This document shows, one piece after another, positions 2,784-32,266 of a stretch of 64,000 bases of DNA (positions are counted from its first letter, which is position 1; the number at the start of each line of letters is the position of its first letter). The notes under the pieces were generated by a model, which saw only the letters and a list, made by a program, of their open reading frames with translations, was not told where the DNA came from and did no database searches. Source of the stretch: Clostridia bacterium (GTDB lineage Bacteria > Bacillota > Clostridia > Oscillospirales > CAG-272); NCBI GenBank assembly GCA_017473085.1, contig JAFUNF010000011.1, positions 111,876 through 175,875 on the forward strand. The letters are read 5' to 3'. The position numbers and the translations under genes were made by a program.

Positions 2784-4214
2784 TTATCTTGCGTATATAG
2801 TGTTCCAGTGCTTAAGCTTTTCCTTGTCAATTTTTTCAAATTGCTCCTTAGTAATTCTAAAGGACCAGTTGTCGTCACAGCTACCAGGTGTATTAAGACG
2901 TGTATCCTTACCATACTTCAAAAGGTCTTGAACGGGGAAGATTACAAGTCCTGCGTGAGATGCAAGCATTGAACGAATAACAGTATCGTAGCAGTTATCC
3001 CAATTGTCCCCCTCATAGCCAAAATAGCTTAGAAAATGCTTTCTTTTATTCTCGTCAAGGTCCCAAACGTAGCCAAGAAGAGTATTGTTGTCGTGTGTGC
3101 CTGTGTAGGCAACGCAATTGTTAGGATAATTGTGGGGTAGGTGCATTGAATTGTCCTCACCCAAAAGTCCAAATTGCAAAACTCTCATACCAGGATAGGT
3201 GCTATCCTTAACAAGCCTTTCAACCTCAGGAGTTATTTCTCCCAAGTCCTCTGCAATTATCAGCTTATCCTTGCAAACGCCCTTAAGAGCATTGATAAGG
3301 GACATACCTGGACCCTTAACCCAAACACCATTTTTAGCAGTTTTCTCGGTTGATGGTATTGAAAAATAGGACTCTAAGCCTCTGAAATGGTCAATTCTTA
3401 CACCATCGAAAAGCTCACACATAAAGCTCATACGCTGAACCCACCAGGAGTAATTGTCCTTCTTCATTTTGTCCCAATCGTACAAGGGGTTTCCCCAAAG
3501 CTGTCCGTCCTCGCTAAAGTAATCGGGTGGCACGCCTGCAACGTTAGTTGGTCGAAGATTTTCGTCAAGCTGAAACTGCTCAGGATTTGCCCAAACGTCA
3601 GAGGAATCAAGGGCAACGTAAATAGGCACGTCACCTATAATTTTAACACCCCTCTTGTTAGCATACTCCTTAATCTCAAGCCATTGAGTAATAGCCATAT
3701 ACTGTATAAATTTCCAAGCGTGCAAGGAATCCTTGCTAGGCTTTGTATTGGTCCATTCCGTCCACTCCCTGCCACCATTTGCTTCCTTCAGTGCCATAAA
3801 CTCGCAAAAGCGTTCAGTTTGCTTGTGACTCTTGTAAAACTCCTCTAACTTCTTAGTCTCTAAAAACCTTGTAGATGCCTTCCTTAAAAGCTTTAATCTG
3901 TCACGATTAAGCTTTTCAAATTCGCAAGCAAAGGGACTTTTTTGCTTAGCCTCTTGTAGCTCACTCCTTGTAATTAATTCCTTAGTGTGTAGCTTTTCAA
4001 TATCAATAAAATTAGGGTTTACTGAAAAGGCACTAAAGGATTTATATGGGGAATTATATTCATCAGGTAAGCAGAAGGGTAAAACCTGCCAATACTTAAA
4101 TTTACATTCACTTAAAAAATCTATCCATTCCTTAGCACTTTTCGAAAAAGCACCCTCAGAAAAATCTCCCCAAAGGGAAGACACGTGCATTAAAACGCCA
4201 CTACCTCTTTCCAT
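2784..4214 (-). CDS. malQ: 4-alpha-glucanotransferase (amylomaltase, GH77)
   Basis: N-terminus MERGSGVLMHVSSLWG, then PDYFSEDGQLWGNPLYDW and VRIDHFRG blocks typical of MalQ. Start set at ATG 4214, behind an aaggaga RBS. Confidence 0.9.
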   Translation of the reverse strand: MERGSGVLMHVSSLWGDFSEGAFSKSAKEWIDFLSECKFKYWQVLPFCLPDEYNSPYKSFSAFSVNPNFIDIEKLHTKELITRSELQEAKQKSPFACEFEKLNRDRLKLLRKASTRFLETKKLEEFYKSHKQTERFCEFMALKEANGGREWTEWTNTKPSKDSLHAWKFIQYMAITQWLEIKEYANKRGVKIIGDVPIYVALDSSDVWANPEQFQLDENLRPTNVAGVPPDYFSEDGQLWGNPLYDWDKMKKDNYSWWVQRMSFMCELFDGVRIDHFRGLESYFSIPSTEKTAKNGVWVKGPGMSLINALKGVCKDKLIIAEDLGEITPEVERLVKDSTYPGMRVLQFGLLGEDNSMHLPHNYPNNCVAYTGTHDNNTLLGYVWDLDENKRKHFLSYFGYEGDNWDNCYDTVIRSMLASHAGLVIFPVQDLLKYGKDTRLNTPGSCDDNWSFRITKEQFEKIDKEKLKHWNTIYAR

Positions 4215-4371
4215 GAAAAATCTCCTTGTATAAAAGCTTAATATATAATATTCTATCACACAACAATTGATAATTCAATTAATTTTTAGTGCAAATTTGT
4301 TACAAATGTTTGAGCATTACGTCGTGTAATTTATAAAGATAACTAAAAAAATGAAAATAGAAAAAACATAA

Positions 4372-6463: not shown

Positions 6464-8154
6464 TGAAAAAACAGGCTAAGCTTCGCAGAAGTGGAGCAAA
6501 AATAATGGCTAGCCTAATTTTATTACTGGGTAGCCTTTCATACATAATGATTTTAGCAGTTATTAACGGGTCAATTGGCTTTGTTTGTGCAATGGGTGTA
6601 ACACTGTTCGGTGCAGTCGGTGTTGCCAAGGCATTGGGCGAGGCAATAGCGCTTTCGTACGGTTGGATTATTGCCCTTGCAATTGGCTGTGGTGTATTAC
6701 GTGGACTTCTTCGCTACCTTGAGCAATATAGTAACCACTACATTGCCTTTAGGCTTCTTGCCACCTTGCGAGATAAAATCTTTGGAGCACTCAGAACCTT
6801 GTGCCCTGCCAAGCTCGAAAGCAAGCAAAAGGGTAGCATTATAGCAATGATAACCTCCGATATAGAAACCCTTGAGGTTTTCTATGCCCATACAATATCT
6901 CCAATATGTATCGCTGTGGTAGTATCCCTCTCTGTATTCTTATTCGTAGGCTTTGTATCAAGCTGGTACTTGGCGCTTATTGCTCTTATTGGCTTTTTAA
7001 CCATAGGTATAATAGTTCCACTCATCTCCTCAAGTGCACTAAAGGAATCTGGTGTTAGATATAGAAAAGAGTTTTCGTCCTTCAATGGATACTTTCTTGA
7101 TAGCATAAAGGGAATTAAGGATATAGTTTTAAACAATACGGGAAGTAAGCGAAAAGACGAGGTAAATGCTCGTTCAGTTGTCTTACTTAAGGAAACCAAA
7201 AAAATGAAAAGAAACACAACCAAGGCAAGTGCAATAACAGAGCTATTGGTATCGCTATTTATCGTAGCAACCCTTGCAGTAGGCATCGCTTTGGTAATAA
7301 ACGGCTTGTCTGTCGGCAAAATGATAATAGGCGTTGTTGGTGTGTTTGGCTCCTTCGGACCTGTAATTGCCATATCAGCCCTGCCAGGCAACTTAACACA
7401 AACCTTTGCCTCAGGCGATAGAGTTTTGAATTTGCTATCTGAAAAGCCTGCCGTTTCCCCTGTTGTGAATGGAGCAGGCTTTGAATATCAAGACTTGAAG
7501 GTAGAAAATTTGAGCTTTTCCTACGATAAAGAAAGGGAAATTTTAACCGACATCAAAATGCACGCACAAAAGGGCGAGATAATAGGAATTGTGGGCGAAA
7601 GTGGTTGTGGAAAATCAACGTTTTTGAAGCTACTGCTTCGCTTTTGGCAAAAGGATAAGGGTGCTATCAAATATAATAACATAGATATTGATAATGTTGA
7701 CGAAAATAGCCTGTTAGACAATGTAACAATGGTAAGTCAGGTAACCTATTTGTTTGACGATACCATAGAAGAAAATTTACGTGTAGCCAAACGAGATGCA
7801 ACAAATGAGGAAATGGAGAATGCCTGCAAAATGGCTTCAATTCACGACTTTATAATGACATTACCACAGGGCTACCAAACTAAGGTCGGAGCATTAGGCG
7901 ATAATTTATCAGCTGGAGAAAAGCAAAGAATAGGATTAGCTCGTGCATTCCTGCGAGGAAGTGAACTTATTTTACTCGATGAGCCAACAAGCAACGTTGA
8001 TAGCATAAACGAGGGAATAATTCTTAAGGCACTTAAGGAGCAAAAAAATAAGAAAAGCATTATTCTTGTATCTCACAGGGAATCTACTATGGCAATTGCA
8101 GACCGTATATATAACGTAAAAGATGGAAAAATGTATGAACAAAAAAGAGCTTGA
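6460..8154 (+). CDS. ABC exporter, fused permease/ATPase (CydC-like partner)
   Basis: The start overlaps the upstream stop by 4 nt. Carries Walker A GESGCGKST, signature LSAGEKQR and Walker B LILLDEPTS. Confidence 0.85.
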   Translation: MMKKQAKLRRSGAKIMASLILLLGSLSYIMILAVINGSIGFVCAMGVTLFGAVGVAKALGEAIALSYGWIIALAIGCGVLRGLLRYLEQYSNHYIAFRLLATLRDKIFGALRTLCPAKLESKQKGSIIAMITSDIETLEVFYAHTISPICIAVVVSLSVFLFVGFVSSWYLALIALIGFLTIGIIVPLISSSALKESGVRYRKEFSSFNGYFLDSIKGIKDIVLNNTGSKRKDEVNARSVVLLKETKKMKRNTTKASAITELLVSLFIVATLAVGIALVINGLSVGKMIIGVVGVFGSFGPVIAISALPGNLTQTFASGDRVLNLLSEKPAVSPVVNGAGFEYQDLKVENLSFSYDKEREILTDIKMHAQKGEIIGIVGESGCGKSTFLKLLLRFWQKDKGAIKYNNIDIDNVDENSLLDNVTMVSQVTYLFDDTIEENLRVAKRDATNEEMENACKMASIHDFIMTLPQGYQTKVGALGDNLSAGEKQRIGLARAFLRGSELILLDEPTSNVDSINEGIILKALKEQKNKKSIILVSHRESTMAIADRIYNVKDGKMYEQKRA

Positions 8155-8482: not shown

Positions 8483-8916
8483 TGAAGGTTAAAAAAATAG
8501 TGTTTATTGTATTAGGCTGTATAGGCTTAGCACTTGGTGCTGTTGGTGCCGTACTCCCAATGCTTCCTGCGTTTCCGTTTTTGCTCGTGGCATTAATATG
8601 CTTTGGTAAAAGCTCTGAAAGACTACATAAATGGTTTGTTGGCACTAAGCTTTATAAAAATAATCTTGAATCCTTTGTCAAGGGGCAGGGTATGACCTGG
8701 AAAACAAAAATCAAAATAATGATAACAGTAACTCTTTTAATGACCTTTGGCTTTGTAATGATGTTTTTAAAGGAGCTATACATTCCCTGTGGAATACTTG
8801 CAGGAGTATGGCTTTTCCATATAATATATTTCTGTTGTGTAAAAACATTAAGAAAAAAGAATGACGCTACAACCGAAGAAAAAGATACGCAAAAACCCGT
8901 AGAGGAAAATCCATAG
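8482..8916 (+). CDS. DUF454/YbaN-family membrane protein
   Basis: The N-terminus LPMLPAFPFLLVALICFGKSSERLHKWF is typical of YbaN-like proteins. ATG overlaps the upstream stop. Confidence 0.65.
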   Translation: MKVKKIVFIVLGCIGLALGAVGAVLPMLPAFPFLLVALICFGKSSERLHKWFVGTKLYKNNLESFVKGQGMTWKTKIKIMITVTLLMTFGFVMMFLKELYIPCGILAGVWLFHIIYFCCVKTLRKKNDATTEEKDTQKPVEENP

Positions 8917-23689: not shown

Positions 23690-23952
23690 AAAAACAAAGC
23701 TCCTTATAAAAAAACAAGTCTGCTTTCAGTATATGCAATTCCTTGGAAAATATTAACTTTGTTGCAAAAGTAAAAAGGCATTTGCAATAATAAGAGTAGT
23801 GTCCATTTATCACGCGTGAGCTTGATAGAAATATATTAAAATGCTCGATGATCTTGTAAAAGTTATGTATGTTGATTTAAATAAATTTGATATGTGAATC
23901 ATTATACACTTGAAAGAATTTCTTGCAAGGGTCTAAAATGTTAAAAAATTAA

Positions 23953-24569
<617 letters not shown>

Positions 24570-24591
24570 TGCGACTATTCCTCTACATATG

Positions 24592-24620
24592 AGTATATCA
24601 CAAGATAAATATTTTGTCAA
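24592..24620 (-). promoter_or_regulatory. Consensus sigma-A promoter inside the invertible segment, currently facing left (away from the RiPP operon)
   Basis: Minus strand reads TTGACA (24620-24615), a 17-nt spacer, tgaTATACT (-10 at 24597-24592 with a TG extension). Confidence 0.7.
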
Positions 24621-24697
24621 GACTTTCATTAAAAAAAGTTGCTTAGATAGTTACTTAACTCCTTTTAGTTAATATTATTGTCTTTAACATAATCAGT

Positions 24698-24721
24698 TGT
24701 CAAAAAGTACACTTTATGGCG
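24698..24721. repeat. Right inverted repeat / hix-like crossover site (IRR)
   Basis: TGTCAAAAAGTACACTTTATGGCG matches the reverse complement of IRL (TGTCAAAAAGTACGCTTTTTGGCA) at 21 of 24 positions. Confidence 0.75.
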
Positions 24722-24760
24722 AAAATATTTCTGACATTCATTTGAAAGGATAGACTTGAT

Positions 24761-25840
24761 GTGAGCGAAAGAAAAACAATTACTTTAATAGTTACAGAAA
24801 AATGTGATCTGGCTTGTTCATATTGCTATGAGCATAAAAAAACGGCAAGAAATATGTCTTTTGAAACTGCAAAGAGAATTATTGATAAAGAATTAGACAA
24901 AACAGAATATTCATCGTTTATGATAGAATTCTTTGGTGGTGAACCATTTTTAAATTTCGAATTAATAAAAGAAATTGTTGAATATGTCAACAAAACATAT
25001 AATAAAGATGTTCATTTCTTTGCTACAACAAATGGAACACAGGTGCACGGAGAAATCCAAGAATGGTTAAGAAAAAATGTAAATCAGTTTACTTTTGGCT
25101 TGAGCTTTGATGGAATTAGAGAAGCACAGAATATTAATCGTTCAAATAGCTACGATAAAATCGACTTAAATGTTTTTAGAGAATTATATCCAATGCAACC
25201 CATTAAAATGACTGTATCAGAAAAGACCTTGCCTATGTTTTTTGAATCAGTAAAATTTTTAACAGAACTTGGCTTTAAGATAGCGTGCAATTTGGCTTAC
25301 ATGGTAGATTGGTTGAAAGATGAAAATCGTACGATTTTAGAGGAACAACTTGACTTGTTAATTGACTATTATATAAATAACCCCGATTATCCCAAATGCA
25401 CAATGCTTGATTATGATATTGCAGTGTTGTCACATCCGTTGATGGATAGTGTGATTGTAAAAAAGTTTTGCGGATGTGGAACAGATATGAGAGTTTATGG
25501 TATTGATGGTGAGTGCTATCCTTGCCAACTGTTTTCTCCGATAGCATCACAAGAAAATGCCATAAAGTCAAAGGATTTTAATTTAACAAGAGACATACCT
25601 AAGGAGTTATATCCAAAAGAATGTAACGATTGCTATTATGAAAGAATTTGTGCATTTTGTTTAGGTAGCAATTATTTAAGTACCGGGGATATGTTTAAAC
25701 CTGATTTTTCGCGTTGTGAGTTAAATAAAATAATATTTAAGGCGAATGCCAAACTCAAGGCGCTTGAATGGGAAAAAGGCTTACTTAAGCACGATGATGA
25801 ACAAGGTTTGTTACGAAGTATTATTAAAATATTAGGTTAG
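24761..25840 (+). CDS. Radical SAM/SPASM-domain peptide-modifying enzyme 1 (anSME-like architecture, no N-terminal RRE)
   Basis: CDLACSYC (CX3CX2C) at residues 15-22. C-terminal Cys clusters CGCG...GECYPC and CNDCYYERICAFC. GTG start 10 nt after aaagga. Confidence 0.85.
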   Translation: MSERKTITLIVTEKCDLACSYCYEHKKTARNMSFETAKRIIDKELDKTEYSSFMIEFFGGEPFLNFELIKEIVEYVNKTYNKDVHFFATTNGTQVHGEIQEWLRKNVNQFTFGLSFDGIREAQNINRSNSYDKIDLNVFRELYPMQPIKMTVSEKTLPMFFESVKFLTELGFKIACNLAYMVDWLKDENRTILEEQLDLLIDYYINNPDYPKCTMLDYDIAVLSHPLMDSVIVKKFCGCGTDMRVYGIDGECYPCQLFSPIASQENAIKSKDFNLTRDIPKELYPKECNDCYYERICAFCLGSNYLSTGDMFKPDFSRCELNKIIFKANAKLKALEWEKGLLKHDDEQGLLRSIIKILG

Positions 25841-25877
25841 ATAAAATTAAATCTTTAAAAAGGAGGGAAAATTGCAT

Positions 25878-26053
25878 ATGAAAGTAACAGAAGAATTAAT
25901 CACCAAGTTTAAAGGAGCAATCATTCCCGAGGAAGATCTAACACTTTACTAGTGGAAATGGTGGGTCCTAGTAAGGGCTGCAATAGAGCTTGCAGCAATG
26001 CTTGTGTCTATAGTTGTGGTGACGGCTGTAGTGGTTCGTGCTCAAGCGTTTAG
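25878..26053 (+). pseudogene. Precursor-peptide gene copy 1, disrupted (leader and Cys-ladder core in different frames)
   Basis: A strong RBS aaaaaggaggg precedes leader MKVTEELITKFKGAIIPEEDLTLY, which stops at TAG 25950-25952. The core VEMVGPSKGCNRACSNACVYSCGDGCSGSCSSV continues in the frame offset by -1 (25952-26053). It stops where copy 4 has Gln. Confidence 0.55.
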
Positions 26054-26113
26054 GCGAGTGGCGGATGCAAAATACCTCTAAAACAAGTAAAAATCAAATC
26101 ATAGATTCAAATA

Positions 26114-26285
26114 ATGAAGTTAACAAAAAGAATTGCTTGTGAGGATTAAAAAATAAATTAAATCTGTTGAATTAGCCTCAGTAACAGGAGTTCACTCTGA
26201 TAGTTGTGATAATACGTGTGCACATTCTTGTAAAGTGAACTGTGCAATTGGGTGCGCTGTGAAATGTGCTAATGAATACTATTAG
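26114..26285 (+). pseudogene. Precursor-peptide gene copy 2, decayed leader with an intact-looking core
   Basis: The leader frame gives MKLTKRIACED, then a stop at 26147-26149. The core frame has an in-frame TAA at 26154-26156 and then IKSVELASVTGVHSDSCDNTCAHSCKVNCAIGCAVKCANEYY. The core differs from copy 3 at only 3 nt. Confidence 0.6.
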
Positions 26286-26341
26286 AAATATAATAGTTAG
26301 ATACGAAAAAATTAACTTCTATTTGGCGAAAAGGAGAATAT

Positions 26342-26512
26342 ATGAGATTGACCGAGGAATTGATTGCTAAGATTAAAAGAGCGATTAAGCCTGTTGAATT
26401 AGCACCGACTATGGGAGTTTATTCCAATAGTTGTGATAATACGTGTGCACATTCTTGTAAAGCGAACTGTGCAATTGGGTGCGCTGCGAAATGTGCTAAT
26501 GAATACTGTTAG
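26342..26512 (+). CDS. RiPP precursor peptide, Cys-ladder core type A (56 aa; below the ORF-track cutoff)
   Basis: aaaggaga RBS. MRLTEELIAKIKRAIKPVELAPTMGVYSNSCDNTCAHSCKANCAIGCAAKCANEYC has Cys at 31, 35, 39, 43, 47, 51 and 56. Confidence 0.75.
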   Translation: MRLTEELIAKIKRAIKPVELAPTMGVYSNSCDNTCAHSCKANCAIGCAAKCANEYC

Positions 26513-26568
26513 AAATATAATAGTTAGATATGAAAAATTTAACTTCTATCTGGCGGAAAGGAGAATAT

Positions 26569-26751
26569 ATGAGATTGACCGAGGAATTGATTGCTAAGAT
26601 TAAAAGAGCGATTAAGCCTGTTGAATTAGCACCGGCTATGGGAGTTTATTCCAATAGTTGTGATAAAACTTGTGGCAGTAGCTGTGATAATAGCTGCTGT
26701 AGTGGTTGCAGTGGGACATGTTCAAGTTCTCAAGCACATGGTGGATGCTAA
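26569..26751 (+). CDS. RiPP precursor peptide, Cys-ladder core type B (60 aa)
   Basis: Start moved from ORF-track 26530 to ATG 26569, behind the same aaaggaga RBS as copy 3. Sequence is MRLTEELIAKIKRAIKPVELAPAMGVYSNSCDKTCGSSCDNSCCSGCSGTCSSSQAHGGC. Confidence 0.8.
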   Translation: MRLTEELIAKIKRAIKPVELAPAMGVYSNSCDKTCGSSCDNSCCSGCSGTCSSSQAHGGC

Positions 26752-26872
26752 GGTTTAATTGAATAATAGCCATGACTTTAATGAAATATTTCCAAACGAG
26801 TTTATAGCAGTTTTGGTTTATTTAATCAAGTTATGGCTATTATTTATCAATTTATAATGAAGGAATTTGTGT

Positions 26873-28258
26873 ATGTATTATATATTAAACAAAAATATAG
26901 CATTAAGAAGTTGGAGACTAATACCACATGCCTATTACTCCAAATTGTTACCAACAGCACGATATTTAACTAAGGCGGAGTTTGATTTGCTGTTGAAGTG
27001 CGACGGAAAAACAGATGTGGAACAGACGCCGTTACTTGAGTGCTTGGAAAATAAGGGGATTATTGCAAGATGTAATAAAAACGAAAAGCAATTGACTATT
27101 TGGCAACGATATAGACATTGTGATAACAGATATTTTCCCAAAATGAATTGGATGATAACAAGTAAGTGCAACTACAATTGCCTACATTGCTTTAACGCGA
27201 TTGACAATTCTCCGTTGCAAAACGAATGGACATATGGTGAGGCAGAGAAATTACTTGATGAGGCAATGAAATGTGGAATACATGCTTTTACTCTCACAGG
27301 AGGAGAGCCGATGGCACATAAAGACTTTTTAAAGATAGTAAAGGGGATTTATGAGCGAGGTATGTATGTAGAAGAAATTAACACCAATGGATTTTTTTTA
27401 AATCAAAAAATATTAGATTCATTTAAGGAGATATCTTGTAATCCGATATTAAAAATATCTTTCGATTGCCTAGGGTTCCACGATTGGATGCGCAACAGGG
27501 CGGGAGCAGAGAAAGATGCGATTAGGGCTATAGAATTGTGCATTGAAAATGGATTTAAAGTTAAGGTTCAAACAAATATCAATAAGGTTAATGTTAATTC
27601 TTTATTAAAAACAATGGAATTTTTAGATTCTATAGGAGTAGCTGAAACAAGGATCATTAAAACCACAGAAACGCCCCGATGGATTCAAAACGCAAAGCAA
27701 GAAACACTTGAAATCGAGGAATACTTTGATTGCGTTTTAAACTTTGTTAATGAGTACATAAAAAAAGAGCGAAATATGTCAATTAATGCATGGCAATTTT
27801 TGAGCATAAATCCATTAAACAAAACATATTGTTTAAATCCTGTGTTATGCAACAAGGGCGATTATCGAGACAGCATTCCAGTATGTATTACCAATAGAGG
27901 AATGATTGCTGTAGCGGCAAATGGTGGTGTATATCCTTGTCATCAAACCTCTGGAATTTATGAAGCTAAGGGAATAAAGGTTGAAAATGTTAAAAACAAA
28001 AGTCTTCAGGAAATATTGCAATATGGTGACTATTTGGATGAGATTTGTCGTACTGTAGGAAATTTAAAAAGCGTTAATGATGAATGTGGAATTTGCAAAT
28101 ATTTTCAGTATTGTTTAGGTGGTTGTCGAGCAGTTGCAATGATTCATACTAATGATAAAAACGGTATAGATCCCACAAAATGTGCATTTTTTAAAAAAGG
28201 ATATCATGAGAAAATATTTGAAATGTTAAAGGAGTGGAATAGTCAAACTATTTTGTAG
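26873..28258 (+). CDS. Radical SAM/SPASM-domain peptide maturase 2 with an N-terminal RRE-like (PqqD-like) extension
   Basis: CNYNCLHC (CX3CX2C) appears only after about 95 aa. That extension contains LTKAEFDLLLKCDGKTDV...LLECLENKGII, which looks like a winged helix. The SPASM motif is exact: CGICKYFQYCLGGC. ATG 26873 lies 7 nt after aaggaa. Confidence 0.85.
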   Translation: MYYILNKNIALRSWRLIPHAYYSKLLPTARYLTKAEFDLLLKCDGKTDVEQTPLLECLENKGIIARCNKNEKQLTIWQRYRHCDNRYFPKMNWMITSKCNYNCLHCFNAIDNSPLQNEWTYGEAEKLLDEAMKCGIHAFTLTGGEPMAHKDFLKIVKGIYERGMYVEEINTNGFFLNQKILDSFKEISCNPILKISFDCLGFHDWMRNRAGAEKDAIRAIELCIENGFKVKVQTNINKVNVNSLLKTMEFLDSIGVAETRIIKTTETPRWIQNAKQETLEIEEYFDCVLNFVNEYIKKERNMSINAWQFLSINPLNKTYCLNPVLCNKGDYRDSIPVCITNRGMIAVAANGGVYPCHQTSGIYEAKGIKVENVKNKSLQEILQYGDYLDEICRTVGNLKSVNDECGICKYFQYCLGGCRAVAMIHTNDKNGIDPTKCAFFKKGYHEKIFEMLKEWNSQTIL

Positions 28259-28264
28259 AAAAAT

Positions 28265-28462
28265 ATGATAGAGCTTGATTTTATTAGTGAAATAGTAAAA
28301 TGTACAACTTCTCAAGAGGTGTATCAAATTTTACTTAAAAATGGCTTTGAAACCACAAAAAAAGAAGCAGCTGTTCTTTTTTTTAATATACACCAAGAAG
28401 GAGATTTGGCCAAGGAAGAGTTATCTAACGTAGGACAAGGTCAAAGATTTCCTAGAGATTAG
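28265..28462 (+). CDS. Small ORF resembling a Nif11-type leader peptide with almost no core
   Basis: TTSQEVYQILLKNGFETTKKEA ... LAKEELSNVGQG-QRFPRD resembles Nif11-like leaders, which end ..ELSDEELE.VAGG. RBS is weak. Starts 7 nt after the rSAM2 stop. Confidence 0.4.
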   Translation: MIELDFISEIVKCTTSQEVYQILLKNGFETTKKEAAVLFFNIHQEGDLAKEELSNVGQGQRFPRD

Positions 28463-28519
28463 AAGAATAAACAGCAATTTAAATTTAAAAATTGTTAAAT
28501 GTGCTAAATCCAAAACGGA

Positions 28520-29257
28520 ATGAAGAATGAAACTATGATAGAACTTATAAATGTAACAAAAAAATTTGGAAAAAATGAAGTAATTCATAATGTCAGTTTT
28601 AAAATTCCTAAAGGTAGAATAGTGGCATTGATAGGTGCCAATGGATCGGGAAAAACAACATTAATGAGAATGATATCTACCATTATTGAACCTACATCCG
28701 GAGAGATTTTTGTTGATGGAATAAATGTTAAAAAATCATCAAATGAGTGTAAAAAAAGAATCGGATTAATTTTAGGCGGAGATGCAACATTATTTAAAAA
28801 TTTCACAGCACGAGAAAATATTTACTATTTTGCTCGTTTGCAGGGAATGGATGATAATTCAGCAAAAGAATGCATTAATAAAATATCTAATTTGTTAAAT
28901 ATGAATGATTATATTGACAAAAGAGTTGATATCTTTTCAAGAGGTATGCGTCAAAAGGTTGTTCTTGCTTCTGCGTTAATACATGATCCATCAATTTTAT
29001 TAATGGATGAGCCTTCTACTGGTTTAGATGTTTTTGCTATTATTGATGTTCAAAATATTATCAAATCCTGTCAAAATTTAAACAAAACAGTTTTGATTTC
29101 TAGTCATAATTTTAACGAAATAGAAAAATTGTGCGATTACATTATCATAATTGAGGCAGGAAGAATAATATTTGCAAACGAAGCAAGTGCACTAAAGAGT
29201 CTTACCTCAAGTTACTCAGTGGAAGAAGCTTTTAAAAAAATAAGTGGTTTGAAGTAG
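28520..29257 (+). CDS. ABC transporter ATP-binding protein (ABC-2 type)
   Basis: Walker A GANGSGKTT, signature FSRGMRQK, Walker B ILLMDEPSTGLD. Confidence 0.9.
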   Translation: MKNETMIELINVTKKFGKNEVIHNVSFKIPKGRIVALIGANGSGKTTLMRMISTIIEPTSGEIFVDGINVKKSSNECKKRIGLILGGDATLFKNFTARENIYYFARLQGMDDNSAKECINKISNLLNMNDYIDKRVDIFSRGMRQKVVLASALIHDPSILLMDEPSTGLDVFAIIDVQNIIKSCQNLNKTVLISSHNFNEIEKLCDYIIIIEAGRIIFANEASALKSLTSSYSVEEAFKKISGLK

Positions 29258-29266
29258 GAGCAGGGT

Positions 29267-30403
29267 ATGACGTTAGAGATAATAAAAAAAGAATTTCTGA
29301 AAATTATTCGTGATAAGCGTAGCCTTTTGTCAATATTTTTGCCACTTGTTATTTTTCCACTTATCTTTTCTTTTGTAGGCTTGCAAGCAGAGCAATCACA
29401 GGAAACCTTAAATGAAAATGTTTTGATTTTCAGTAATGTTGATGAGGAATTTTTAAAGGATTTTTTACCTAATTTGAATTTCAGTTTAGTTGACTGTGAT
29501 AATCCTGAAAAATATCTGGTAGAGGAAAAAATATACGCAATCGTTAATTTTGAAAATTTAGATATTACTCAAATGCCAATATCGGTTAACGTAGTATACA
29601 ATGCAAATTCTAATCTATCCATAGAAACTTATTCTAAAATAATGATTGAATTAGATACAGTTAACGGAATAATAATCAATCAAAATTTGATTGATGCAGG
29701 AGTAAATCCTGATGTATTAAATGGTATTTCGATAAATTCGAAAACTATTGAAACTAACACTCTTTTTGTGATGTTAGCCCCTCTTTTAATTGTTTCATTG
29801 TTAGTGTCTGGCGGTGCTAATGTATCTGCTGATATCTTTGCAGGTGAGAAAGAAAGAGGCTTGTTGGAGCGTACTATAGTTACGCAAGTGAACAAAAATA
29901 GTCTACTATATGGAAAAATGGCAGTGGTTTTTACCATGACTATTTTAAGTGCGACTATATCAACGTTAGCTTATGCTCTGTCGATAGCAATTAATCCCAG
30001 CATTTCTAAAATGTTTGGCTCAACGAGTACATCATTAAATTTGGAAGTGACTTCTTATATTCAATTGGTTACAATTATCTTAACCTTTTGCGCTTTTATT
30101 TCATCTGTATTAATAACTATAAGCATACTTTCTAAAAATGCAAAGGAAGCATCTTCTCATATGTCTATACTCACTATGTTGCCAAGTATTATAAGCTTGC
30201 TGGTAACCTTTGCATCCTTCGGTATAAACAAATGGGCATATGTCGTTCCGTTTTATGGTGCTATAGCTGGATTGAAATTAATTTTTTTAAATGCATTTGA
30301 ATGGAGTAATTATTTATTATTGCTCATATCACAGATTGTTCTTTGTGGTTTATTTACATATATAAATCAAAAACTGATAGAGGGGAATAAGTTTTTGCTG
30401 TAA
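29267..30403 (+). CDS. ABC-2 family permease (NatB-like topology)
   Basis: An N-terminal TM helix, a large extracytoplasmic loop, then about five C-terminal TM helices. Adjacent to the ATPase. Confidence 0.7.
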   Translation: MTLEIIKKEFLKIIRDKRSLLSIFLPLVIFPLIFSFVGLQAEQSQETLNENVLIFSNVDEEFLKDFLPNLNFSLVDCDNPEKYLVEEKIYAIVNFENLDITQMPISVNVVYNANSNLSIETYSKIMIELDTVNGIIINQNLIDAGVNPDVLNGISINSKTIETNTLFVMLAPLLIVSLLVSGGANVSADIFAGEKERGLLERTIVTQVNKNSLLYGKMAVVFTMTILSATISTLAYALSIAINPSISKMFGSTSTSLNLEVTSYIQLVTIILTFCAFISSVLITISILSKNAKEASSHMSILTMLPSIISLLVTFASFGINKWAYVVPFYGAIAGLKLIFLNAFEWSNYLLLLISQIVLCGLFTYINQKLIEGNKFLL

Positions 30404-30441
30404 TCATTATCAAAATGAAAATTCGTCATGGAGGTGTCATT

Positions 30442-30507
30442 ATGTGGGGAGTATTTTTTGCTGGAGCAATATTGGCTAGCGTGCTTTGGAATATGCGTCG
30501 TAGATAA
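30442..30507 (+). CDS. Possible 21-aa hydrophobic peptide (MWGVFFAGAILASVLWNMRRR)
   Basis: A ggagg RBS lies 7 nt upstream of ATG 30442, and an in-frame alternative ATG is at 30415. It has a single TM-like stretch and an RRR tail. Too short to score statistically. Confidence 0.3.
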   Translation: MWGVFFAGAILASVLWNMRRR

Positions 30508-30657
30508 AATTTTATTTTTAGAACATAAATATTGAGAAAATATTAAATTTTCTAATGAACTTGAAGTAAATCCAAAAGTAAGACACTTTTGGAGGTACAT
30601 ATTACTTTTAAGGAGTTTTTATAAATTTCGTTCAATTCATTTTGATGTGATTTTCAG

Positions 30658-30714
30658 GACTGTTACTAATGGCTGATTTTGAAGGATATCAGTTGTGAGT
30701 GACAGTCTTTTTTT
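30658..30714 (+). terminator. Probable terminator of the RiPP operon
   Basis: Outer stem GACTGTTAC/GTGACAGTC (9 bp including one G-U pair) encloses inner stem CTGAT/ATCAG and is followed by T7. Confidence 0.55.
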
Positions 30715-30895
30715 AATAAAAGCAATCACATGTTTATATTTAGGCGTCCATATAACATTTTAAAAATTTATAAAAATTTTTGATAGATTTCTCCTGCCCT
30801 TTTGTCGCCCTTTTAAAATTTAGCACCTAACGTCACTTTTTTGTGATGTTAGGTGCGTTTTTTTGCAATTGTATTACTTAAATTGAGAGTTTTAG

Positions 30896-32266
30896 TTATT
30901 TTCCTTTAAATAGCGAAAGTGCATCGTAAACGCCTTGGATTGGGATTGTGGATACTCCCTTGGGGATTTTTGCTTTTGCGTCTAAGGAATTGTGGGGGAT
31001 TGCGATACAATCGAAGCCTAAGCGGTGTGCCTCGTTTAAGCGCTTGCCAAGGTTTGTAATAGACCTACATTCGCCTGCAAGACCGATTTCGCCCATAGCA
31101 ATTACGTTTTGAGGAATTGGAATATCCTTTATAGACGAAATAAGCGCAAGGGCAAGGGCAAGGTCAACAGATGGGTCGTCAACACGCAAGCCACTTACAA
31201 CGTTTATATAAACGTCGTTTTCTGAAAACTTAAGACCGAGCCTTTTTTCAAGAACTGCCAAAATAAGACAAAGTCGATTATAGTCGATACCATTTGAGGT
31301 ACGTCTTGGGGCAGGAAAGGCAGTAGGCGTAACTAATGCCTGTACCTCTGCAATAAGAGGACGAGAGCCCTCCATAATACAAACTGCACAGCTACCTGAA
31401 ACACCAATTGGTCTTCCAGAAAGAAGCATTTCAGAAGGACTTGGCACCTCGCAAAGACCCATATCTGTCATTTCAAAAACACCAATTTCATTAGTTGAGC
31501 CAAAGCGATTTTTAATTGCTCTTATAATTCTATATGAGTGTATTCTTTCGCCCTCAAAATATAGCACAGCATCAACCATATGCTCAAGAATTTTAGGACC
31601 TGCAATAACACCCTCTTTATTTACGTGACCAACAAGGATAATAGAAATACCCTTGCTCTTTGCCTTTGCAATAAGCTTAGTTGCACATTCCTTTACCTGT
31701 GCAATGCTACCAGGAATAGATGCACAAGCAGGGTCAAGCATAGTTTGAATTGAGTCAATTATAATAACCTGTGGAGTAAGCTTATCAGCATACTTTAAAA
31801 CGTTATCAACGTTTGTTTCAGTTAGAAAATATGTATTCTCTCCGTTGATTTGCAGTCTTTGACCACGTAGTTTAAGCTGACCACGAGATTCTTCGCCTGA
31901 TACGTATAAAACCTTAGATGGAAAGTTAGAGCAGATTTGCATAAGCAGAGTAGATTTGCCAATACCTGGCTCGCCAGCTAACAAAACAACGCTACCATTT
32001 ACAACTCCACCACCTAAGACTCTGTCAAGCTCGCCAATGCCTGTATTTTGTCTTATGTACTCAGGCATTTCCATTTCCTTAAAGGGAACAGGCTCCTGTG
32101 AGTCGGACAAAAGAGAAACACGAGGATTTTTAACAACTGCCACAGGCTTTTCCTCGTAGGTTTCCTCAATCATAGTATTCCATTTTTTGCAGGACGGACA
32201 TTGCCCTGTCCATTTTGGACTTTGATAGTCACAGGCAGAGCATACAAAAACCTTCTTTTCCTTCAT
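30896..32266 (-). CDS. radA: DNA repair protein RadA/Sms
   Basis: N-terminal zinc finger CSACDYQSPKWTGQCPSC, Walker A GEPGIGKST, KNRFG motif and a Lon-like C-terminal domain. Confidence 0.95.
   Translation of the reverse strand: MKEKKVFVCSACDYQSPKWTGQCPSCKKWNTMIEETYEEKPVAVVKNPRVSLLSDSQEPVPFKEMEMPEYIRQNTGIGELDRVLGGGVVNGSVVLLAGEPGIGKSTLLMQICSNFPSKVLYVSGEESRGQLKLRGQRLQINGENTYFLTETNVDNVLKYADKLTPQVIIIDSIQTMLDPACASIPGSIAQVKECATKLIAKAKSKGISIILVGHVNKEGVIAGPKILEHMVDAVLYFEGERIHSYRIIRAIKNRFGSTNEIGVFEMTDMGLCEVPSPSEMLLSGRPIGVSGSCAVCIMEGSRPLIAEVQALVTPTAFPAPRRTSNGIDYNRLCLILAVLEKRLGLKFSENDVYINVVSGLRVDDPSVDLALALALISSIKDIPIPQNVIAMGEIGLAGECRSITNLGKRLNEAHRLGFDCIAIPHNSLDAKAKIPKGVSTIPIQGVYDALSLFKGK

Follow-up and report, generated by a model that had tools for sequence, protein, structure and literature searches.

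The window analysed here is a stretch of 64,000 nucleotides (nt) from the metagenome-assembled genome (MAG) of a Clostridia bacterium (assembly GCA_017473085.1, contig JAFUNF010000011.1), and at 24761-30507 it carries a gene cluster for peptides that are ribosomally synthesized and modified post-translationally (RiPPs). The cluster is a predicted radical S-adenosylmethionine (SAM) thioether RiPP system of the ranthipeptide/CXXX-repeat type, and not a categorically new system. It encodes small Cys-rich precursors with CX3C-spaced cysteines (ladder peptides), two dissimilar radical SAM/SPASM enzymes (designated enzyme 1 and enzyme 2), a peptide of 65 amino acids (aa) resembling a leader, and an ABC-2 transporter. 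Together with a recombinase gene, the cluster forms a cassette of ~6.8 kb that is mobile cargo in a high-turnover hotspot. We consider it somewhat probable that the cassette joins two modules, the first of which would install a ladder of thioethers and the second of which would add a further tailoring step, and that the ABC-2 pair would provide export or immunity.

Gene content and the ladder precursors

Proteins MBQ7761098-107, on a contig of 176 kb, cover the region, and NCBI labels the cluster genes just as "radical SAM protein", "hypothetical protein" or "ABC transporter". An earlier note, made from the letters alone, had described one co-directional RiPP-type operon with genes for Cys-ladder precursors, for two radical SAM/SPASM enzymes that are dissimilar, and for an ABC-2 transporter. 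This description was borne out, and all of the elements that it named lie on the + strand. The features, in which RRE denotes a RiPP recognition element, are as follows.

23965..24567, + strand: serine recombinase (resolvase), part of the mobile cassette (Pfam Resolvase, 99 bits)
24761..25840, + strand: enzyme 1, predicted CteB/PapB-like radical SAM/SPASM maturase without an RRE, 359 aa (MBQ7761100.1)
25878..26053, + strand: precursor copy 1, pseudogene with a leader/core frameshift (from the sequence and the list of open reading frames)
26130..26285, + strand: precursor copy 2, pseudogene with a stop in the leader and the terminal Cys changed to Tyr (sequence read directly)
26342..26512, + strand: precursor copy 3, intact, 56 aa, core CDNTCAHSCKANCAIGCAAKCANEYC (MBQ7761101.1)
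26569..26751, + strand: precursor copy 4, intact, 60 aa, core CDKTCGSSCDNSCCSGCSGTCSSSQAHGGC (MBQ7761102.1)
26873..28258, + strand: enzyme 2, with RRE-like, radical SAM and SPASM domains, 461 aa from the ATG at 26873
28265..28462, + strand: putative Nif11-type "leader-only" peptide, 65 aa, C-terminus ...EELSNVGQG-QRFPRD (MBQ7761104.1)
28520..29257, + strand: ABC transporter ATPase, DrrA-like (Pfam ABC_tran, 111.6 bits)
29267..30403, + strand: ABC-2 permease without a CPBP protease domain (PF12698, 68.7 bits)
30445..30507, + strand: 21-aa hydrophobic open reading frame (ORF) MWGVFFAGAILASVLWNMRRR, possible small membrane peptide
30823..30866, + strand: intrinsic-terminator-like hairpin at the end of the operon, convergent with radA

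The two intact precursors have the leader, the core sequences and the Cys counts (7 and 8) that the earlier note had given, and both have AGGAG ribosome-binding sites. Copy 2 is the first unit of a 227-nt tandem repeat made up of copies 2-4. The count of four tandem copies with two intact also holds, with one correction: copy 2 is more than truncated, as an in-frame TAA at 26154-26156 interrupts its leader and its last Cys is now Tyr. In copy 1, the leader frame closes at a TAG and the core sits in a different frame; the equivalent of copy 1 in locus L081 is an intact gene at 4152-4343.

The cores have CX3C periodicity and lack the C-X3-D/E motif. The residues between the cysteines are small, with D/S/G at +1, G/N/S at +2 and S/G/T at +3, and the potential acceptor residues are mainly Gly/Ser/Asp/Asn/Thr. 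Orthologues of copy 4 are present in loci L081, L246, L248 and L253 and as proteins P0256-P0267. The type-4 core, CDxxCGSSCDNxCCxGCxGxCSxxxxHGGC, is almost invariant, though the identity of enzyme 1 falls to 67%. Among four orthologous 60-aa precursors, the differences at codon positions 1/2/3 number 48/43/173, with the same bias in leader and core. Thus, the Cys frame of the ladder precursors is under purifying selection in both leader and core. The same pattern rules out the +1 frame, an open and hydrophobic frame of the CX3C cores that is called in loci L249 and L256.

Specifically, gene callers took this Val/Ala-rich hydrophobic +1 frame at L249:10146-10337 and from L256:10238 onward. A frameshift in an A-run of the ladder leader is found at L247:1478-1666. 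A protein search with the ladder precursor returned only 3 matches, such small genes being seldom called. Ladder precursors are under-called in public protein sets because of the +1-frame calls and the small size of the genes.

The only NCBIfam families touched by the precursors are Cxxx-repeat peptide models, all of them below cutoff. The best scores against TIGR04114, TIGR04117 and TIGR04118 are 13.5, 15.7 and 13.5 bits (E about 0.01), compared with cutoffs of 20, 50 and 35 bits; the weak sub-threshold matches of copy 3 are to TIGR04117 and TIGR04114. As the earlier note had stated, a double-Gly motif is absent from the ladder leaders and no protease is encoded in the cluster. The first 23 residues of the leader resemble the N-terminus of Nif11-type leaders in a short hhalign alignment (95%, E 3.7e-8). 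A thiazole/oxazole (heterocycloanthracin-type) peptide was considered and rejected: one relative's precursor weakly matches TIGR03601 (E 0.022), and no locus contains a cyclodehydratase.

The two enzymes and the leader-like peptide

Judged from its sequence and modelled fold, enzyme 1 is a CteB/PapB-like radical SAM/SPASM maturase without an RRE. Its CX3CX2C motif consists of C15/C19/C22, and CNDCYYERICAFC spans C288-C300. The cysteines at positions 15/19/22, 237, 255, 288, 291, 297, 300 and 319 are invariant in 36 homologues; C237, C255, C288, C291, C297, C300 and C319 give a complete 7-Cys SPASM pattern. A Pfam SPASM (PF13186) match is absent in enzyme 1, and its SPASM domain is predicted from these seven cysteines and the CteB/anSME-like fold. 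Both enzymes exceed the gathering threshold of the radical SAM superfamily PF04055 (29.5 bits), with 48.3 bits for enzyme 1 and 65.5 bits for enzyme 2, and neither alignment shows variation at the radical SAM motif cysteines. In enzyme 1, this motif begins at residue 15, which leaves no space for an RRE.

In a phmmer search of the PDB, CteB is the sole strong solved relative of enzyme 1 (E 1e-18); residues 5-324 of enzyme 1 align to CteB 97-440, leaving out the CteB RRE domain. The AlphaFold2 (AF2) model of enzyme 1 has a predicted local distance difference test (pLDDT) of 91.5, and its best fold match is CteB, with a template modelling (TM) score of 0.71-0.73, followed by anSME and then ChlB. 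In CteB, six residues of "catalytic-site proximity" were defined by Precord et al. (PMC10288494). The corresponding positions in enzyme 1 are Y23/F58/T89/S115/Q256/L257, of which three are identical, one is a conservative replacement and two differ.

Curated NCBIfam membership was rejected for enzyme 1, since every family tested misses its cutoff by a factor of 2-6. Specifically, enzyme 1 scores 161 bits against the PapB model NF047865 (cutoff 340), 141.8 bits against the CXXX-repeat target maturase TIGR04115 (cutoff 350), 95.5 bits against CcpM TIGR04068 (cutoff 500), 94.9 bits against the SCIFF maturase ScfB/CteB TIGR03974 (cutoff 425), 83.6 bits against QhpD TIGR03906 (cutoff 453) and 54 bits against anSME TIGR03942 (cutoff 349). 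The earlier note had assigned the cluster to no named family and had proposed such a comparison with hidden Markov models. After the comparison, the lack of an assignment stands, but a named neighbourhood does exist, namely the NCBIfam CXXX-repeat radical SAM target systems TIGR04114-04118.

Comparison with characterised systems defines both the likeness and the differences. CteB, which modifies SCIFF peptides (thermocellin), is the closest solved relative by sequence and fold and has the same radical SAM and two-cluster SPASM core, and SCIFF cores also have CX3C-spaced cysteines with acceptors between them. However, CteB has an N-terminal RRE and is 23-25% identical to enzyme 1, and SCIFF peptides differ in their leader and contain 6 Cys. 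PapB of Paenibacillus polymyxa is the top NCBIfam match of enzyme 1, and its product freyrasin contains six small Cys-to-Asp rings, the topology proposed here; unlike enzyme 1, PapB has an RRE at residues 1-86, and it needs Cys-X3-Asp/Glu, which the ladder cores do not have. The CXXX-repeat systems (TIGR04115; TIGR04114/04117/04118), the second-best match, likewise place a radical SAM/SPASM maturase beside CXXX-repeat peptides, whereas the TIGR04115 member annotated in Anaerococcus prevotii pAPRE01, at only 31% identity, is a fusion protein of 729 aa, and its 56-aa peptide has 4 Cys. ChlB and other three-residue cyclophane synthases share with enzyme 1 a length of ~375 aa, the lack of an RRE and the fold (TM 0.68-0.70), and ChlB binds its leader directly (PDB 9GM3). 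In contrast to the chemistry proposed here, these synthases create C-C bonds with the aromatic rings of aromatic-X-X motifs, and the ladder cores are almost free of aromatic residues. Cyclophane (triceptide) chemistry was rejected for enzyme 1: ChlB is a fold neighbour, but the cores are without aromatic-X-X motifs.

The earlier note had set the cores, which have no Cys-free acceptor half, apart from hairpin sactipeptides. This is no departure from known chemistry: donors and acceptors are interleaved in the small rings of freyrasin, with six Cys-Asp thioethers, and of SCIFF peptides, with Cys-Thr links, and this is a known ranthipeptide topology (PMC8172795).

Enzyme 1 has 687 relatives with E <=1e-10, and the identity is >=45% for at least 120 of these. 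The relatives come mostly from uncultured bacteria (gut, rumen), and the few that are named are Clostridia MAGs. Where the enzyme is >=60% identical, all loci that were read have an adjacent CX3C-repeat peptide with a common leader motif, M-x-L-x-x-E-L-I-x-K-I-K-x-A-I-x-P, followed by the CX3C core. Relatives at 33-46% identity lie in assemblies labelled Clostridia, Bacteroidales, Synergistales and Treponema, and CX3C-repeat peptides are present in most of these loci, some with up to 16 Cys. Among species-representative genomes and JGI metagenomes, relatives reach 46% identity at most (best 80 loci per scan), and close relatives come from ENA/Logan assemblies only. The enzyme 1 family is an uncurated branch of a bioinformatically recognised kind. 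A phage origin was also considered and rejected, the IMG/VR relatives of enzyme 1 being at <=29% identity only.

Two further arrangements were seen among the relatives. At L248:3989-5364, directly upstream of the main module, there is a second ladder module with a 70-aa CX3C precursor (...SAYASPY) and a radical SAM enzyme of 377 aa; the ladder module is therefore duplicated in tandem in this locus. At L256:10238-11834 and L160:2058-3574, the partner of the enzyme 1 relatives is another radical SAM enzyme, 463-496 aa long. This enzyme is accompanied by a 34-35-aa peptide, MT(I/V)..GY.EE.L..VFE....C..CC..CS.D, and the pair is a second partner module that recurs.

Homologues of enzyme 2 begin MxYILN, so its start is probably the ATG at 26873 (461 aa). 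The RRE-like extension, the CNYNCLHC motif and the SPASM motif CGICKYFQYCLGGC that the earlier note had described are all present, and its ~95 aa before CNYNCLHC become about 93 aa with this start. In addition to the radical SAM match, enzyme 2 matches SPASM PF13186 with 24.6 bits (threshold 21.5). Its best NCBIfam score is to AhbD TIGR04545 (113.9 bits, cutoff 500), followed by StsB NF045574 (91.4 bits, cutoff 625) and the nif11 maturase TIGR04103 (76.6 bits, cutoff 725). In the AF2 model (pLDDT 88.9), residues 2-69 form three beta-strands followed by helices, with pLDDT of 85-96. Foldseek aligns enzyme 2 over its full length (478 columns) with RRE-bearing SuiB, its best match, at TM 0.64-0.67.

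The enzyme 2 family comprises 1315 relatives, and an alignment of 43 has a mean column identity of 72%. The ladder-associated subclade has about six representatives at 60-86% identity, and the others plateau at 54-59%. Three examined loci with homologues at 54-60% identity adjoin Nif11-leader precursors (...ELSDDELDNVAGG-C...) and also hold paired ABC exporters, one exporter with a C39 peptidase domain. The N-terminal RRE-like domain is almost invariant between ladder-associated and Nif11-associated members. The cassette thus resembles Nif11-leader/C39 systems in its enzyme 2 and in the homology of their leaders to the 65-aa ORF; in contrast to these systems, the leader here has neither a GG site nor a Cys-rich core, there is no C39 exporter, and the module is joined to a ladder module.

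Among these relatives, L086:3846-6195 and L087:274-1642 and 6586-6996 carry several copies of genes for Nif11-leader precursors, 129-153 aa long, next to enzyme 2 homologues and pairs of ABC exporters (one C39). Their cores are Cys-rich and zinc-ribbon-like, with GGGC(Y/H)..DGRL(I/V)VT... This large gut-associated Nif11-leader family appears to be uncharacterised as well.

The 65-aa ORF gives no Pfam match even at E up to 10, including PF07862 (gathering 23.8), and no NCBIfam match to Nif11, and profile-profile comparison was therefore needed for its homology. In hhalign, it aligns with Nif11-type leaders with a probability of 98.3% (E 1.8e-14), and 8/8 of the leaders used match Pfam Nif11. 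The alignment reaches the GG site, where ELSNVGQG of the 65-aa ORF is opposite ELDNVSGG. A phmmer search of 1.84 billion representative proteins found three orthologues of the 65-aa ORF and one true Nif11 precursor (P0266). An orthologue lies directly 3' of enzyme 2 in the window and in L081, L246, L248 and L253, and all orthologues end in GQGQ (or GDG) plus 2-16 variable, Cys-free residues. The earlier note had listed the 65-aa ORF without interpreting it; by its sequence, it is a leader of the Nif11 type that has a degenerate GG site and hardly any core.

The distribution of enzyme 2 was compared with the identity of enzyme 1 to that of the window and with the C-terminal ends of the precursors.

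Window: enzyme 1 is the reference; enzyme 2 present; ends GGC (copy 4) and NEYC (copy 3)
L081: enzyme 1 89% identical; enzyme 2 present; ends GGC (three precursors)
L246: enzyme 1 79%; enzyme 2 present; ends GGC
L248: enzyme 1 70%; enzyme 2 present; ends GGC
L253-255: enzyme 1 67%; enzyme 2 present; ends GGC
L082: enzyme 1 65%; no enzyme 2; ends GKGPR
L083: enzyme 1 63%; no enzyme 2; ends GSTR
L249: enzyme 1 63%; enzyme 2 apparently absent (the contig stops 284 nt past the precursor); ends AAHL
L256: enzyme 1 61%; no enzyme 2, a different second radical SAM enzyme; ends GHTR

The enzyme 2 loci have a common gene order: enzyme 1, precursor(s), enzyme 2 and the Nif11-like small gene. Because loci exist without enzyme 2, enzyme 1 and its peptide represent a self-sufficient core, and enzyme 2 with the leader-like peptide represents an add-on. 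The GGC ending occurs in 7/8 intact precursors of the five enzyme 2 loci and in 0/5 precursors outside, the fifth of which, ending ASPY, adjoins the additional radical SAM enzyme of 377 aa in L248. This co-occurrence, which comes from a single clade, weakly suggests that enzyme 2 tailors the C-terminus of the ladder peptide.

A mobile cassette between radA and asnB

The segment 23876-30670 of the window, which comprises the resolvase and the cluster, recurs in L081 in an unrelated context at 82-85% nucleotide identity. Homology to sister strains breaks at ~23775 and returns at 30896, and the radA-asnB interval so defined (23776-30895; loci L257-L260) varies between strains. In sister strains with a RadA >=90% identical, Cas12a (Cpf1) and a small ORF lie between radA and asnB; in other sister strains, the interval holds a T5orf172/ResIII protein, an Eco57I-type methyltransferase and a phage integrase. 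GC content falls to 0.30-0.35 within the cluster. Other relatives adjoin TraG/type IV secretion system coupling proteins and DUF87 ATPases.

In locus L246, the segment 376-4478, upstream of TraG and of the ladder cluster, has a gene for a 101-aa peptide containing six WSNSTASWKN-like repeats, then those for two radical SAM enzymes of 400 and 461 aa, and then those for a PP-binding protein and ClpP. This segment resembles a further unclassified RiPP module carried by the same mobile element. The cassette was also considered as an anti-phage defence system, and this was rejected: PADLOC gives generic radical SAM (pVip) and ABC ATPase similarity only.

The ABC ATPase scores 205.6 bits against TIGR01188 (cutoff 312), and the permease covers just positions 6-391 of the 636-position ABC_perm_CPBP model. 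The ABC-2 pair is found in the window and in L081 and is missing from L248, and it is an accessory. The 21-aa hydrophobic ORF that the earlier note had listed is present and has a counterpart in L081, MWGVFFAGAVLASLLWNLSRR (about 8550-8615), with conservative changes only (two sequences, the L081 cassette being 82% identical). It may be a real small membrane peptide, acting as a transporter accessory or an immunity factor.

A terminator had also been placed at the end of the operon. A strong one does exist, but it lies beyond 30507, where the cluster had been taken to end: the hairpin at 30823-30866 has a 14-bp stem with 7 GC pairs and a following T-run, and is the only strong terminator. An Rfam scan of the window gave zero matches. 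At the other end, the spacer between the resolvase and enzyme 1 (24592-24726) contains two near-consensus promoter-like sites on the minus strand (11/12 matches) and weaker plus-strand sites, and a short ORF within it (MSISQDKYF...) has a 51-aa counterpart in L081.

Proposed pathway and its alternatives

In the proposed pathway, the ~30-aa leader, which has a conserved N-terminal helix (LTEELIAKIKRAIKP), would be bound directly by enzyme 1 without an RRE. The ChlB-leader crystal structure is a precedent for direct binding. By analogy with CteB, PapB and QhpD, the SAM cluster of enzyme 1 would abstract a hydrogen from a residue between the cysteines, and its auxiliary clusters would deliver a Cys thiolate to give an S-C thioether, a reaction that would be repeated for most of the 7-8 Cys. 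The product of this first module (module A) would be a ladder of small rings, in which the attacked carbon may be alpha, as in sactipeptides, or beta/gamma, as in ranthipeptides; the small-ring sactisynthases GggB and QmpB resemble ranthisynthases (PMC10288494). The second module (module B), enzyme 2 with the 65-aa peptide, was probably recruited from a Nif11-leader/C39-exporter RiPP system. Enzyme 2 most likely adds a second tailoring step, for which the C-terminal (H/N)GGC is the candidate site and which the leader-only peptide may license; alternatively, enzyme 2 may act only on that peptide. The ABC-2 pair would export the product or protect the producer. Removal of the leader would need a protease from elsewhere, none being encoded in the cluster.

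A bolder form of this pathway, which we regard as improbable, is that the 65-aa peptide would be a natural split leader, coreless, that binds the RRE-like domain of enzyme 2 in trans and so activates the enzyme for HGGC tailoring of ladder peptides whose own leader is different and truncated, and that the product of both enzymes would be the densest thioether RiPP known, with 7-8 links in 26-30 residues.

Several observations weigh against the two-module pathway. The function of enzyme 1 is carried over at ~25-30% identity, with no score above a curated threshold, and CteB H363 and Q364 are replaced by Q and L. Other reactions are catalysed by radical SAM/SPASM enzymes of similar fold: Cys/Ser oxidation by anSME, C-C cyclophane formation by ChlB and epimerisation by EpeE. 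A literature search for CXXX-repeat/CX3C radical SAM systems and the TIGR accessions found no published characterisation. The association of GGC with enzyme 2 comes from one clade and may reflect shared ancestry, and precursor copy 3 has the ending NEYC in place of GGC. The tails of the 65-aa peptides are short, variable and Cys-free, and their role may be that of substrate, cofactor or relic. Finally, pseudogenes account for 2/4 precursor copies, which could mean decay of the cassette.

From two dissimilar enzymes, the earlier note had argued for two chemistries. The two enzymes are indeed dissimilar, but two chemistries on one peptide is just one of two readings, because relatives of enzyme 1 work with the ladder peptide alone and enzyme 2 is Nif11-associated. 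The other reading, which we judge possible but distinctly doubtful, is that the cassette holds two independent RiPP pathways with unrelated products, in which enzyme 1 alone would modify the ladder peptides and enzyme 2 would modify only the short tail of its own 65-aa precursor (e.g. by cross-linking or otherwise altering GQGQ-R/K-F-P...). A small Nif11-like gene is located directly downstream of enzyme 2 in every enzyme 2 locus, and a 57%-identical homologue in L088 likewise has a 76-aa precursor with a short core, CDLGNEKYYQPFWG. The near-invariant RRE-like domain of enzyme 2 probably still binds a Nif11-type leader, and 6/7 tails of the 65-aa orthologues contain an aromatic residue. However, these tails of just 2-16 residues have no common motif beyond the first K/R (5/7), the GG site and Cys have been lost, and no C39 exporter lies alongside here. 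Independent pathways would also leave the association between GGC and enzyme 2 unexplained.

It is unlikely that the ladder peptides carry no thioethers at all, with enzyme 1 instead catalysing formylglycine formation, epimerisation or C-C coupling, or with the product being a thiol-rich metal-binding peptide. anSME, the second-best fold match, has ~370 aa and no RRE, like enzyme 1, and the epimerase EpeE/YydG is among the sequence matches. Yet the anSME score of 54 bits (cutoff 349) compares with 95-161 bits for the PapB, CXXX-repeat and SCIFF maturases, CteB tops both the sequence and the fold matches, and the aromatic residues that cyclophanes require are scarce in the cores. Cores of Cys with Gly/Ser do resemble metal-binding peptides, but the conservation of the exact Cys spacing and of the intervening residues fits ring formation better.

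Least probable is a decaying, non-functional relic of a mobile element: although two of the four precursor copies here are pseudogenes, compared with three intact copies in L081, and the cassette occupies a high-turnover hotspot, the genes for the two enzymes, the transporter pair, two precursors and the 65-aa peptide are intact, every family-invariant residue is kept in both enzymes, and the ribosome-binding sites are preserved.

Thousands of uncharacterised radical SAM RiPP clusters exist, and PapB already serves as a peptide-stapling tool. Radical SAM thioether peptides supply new enzyme chemistry, stapling tools and narrow-spectrum gut antimicrobials. The enzyme 1 family has at least a few hundred members with CX3C-ladder substrates, and neither a curated model nor a published experiment was found for it. 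Under the two-module pathway, enzyme 1 would be an example of leader recognition without an RRE domain, and a substrate with one Cys per four residues would probe how a single active site makes many adjacent small rings. Should the 65-aa peptide work in trans, nature would provide an instance of a device hitherto used mainly in the laboratory. The RRE-free enzyme, the extreme Cys density, the recruited Nif11 module with its coreless leader and the mobility in a hotspot together make the cassette a worthwhile target. Its recombinase-borne move into a hotspot that otherwise holds defence systems suggests a role in strain competition.

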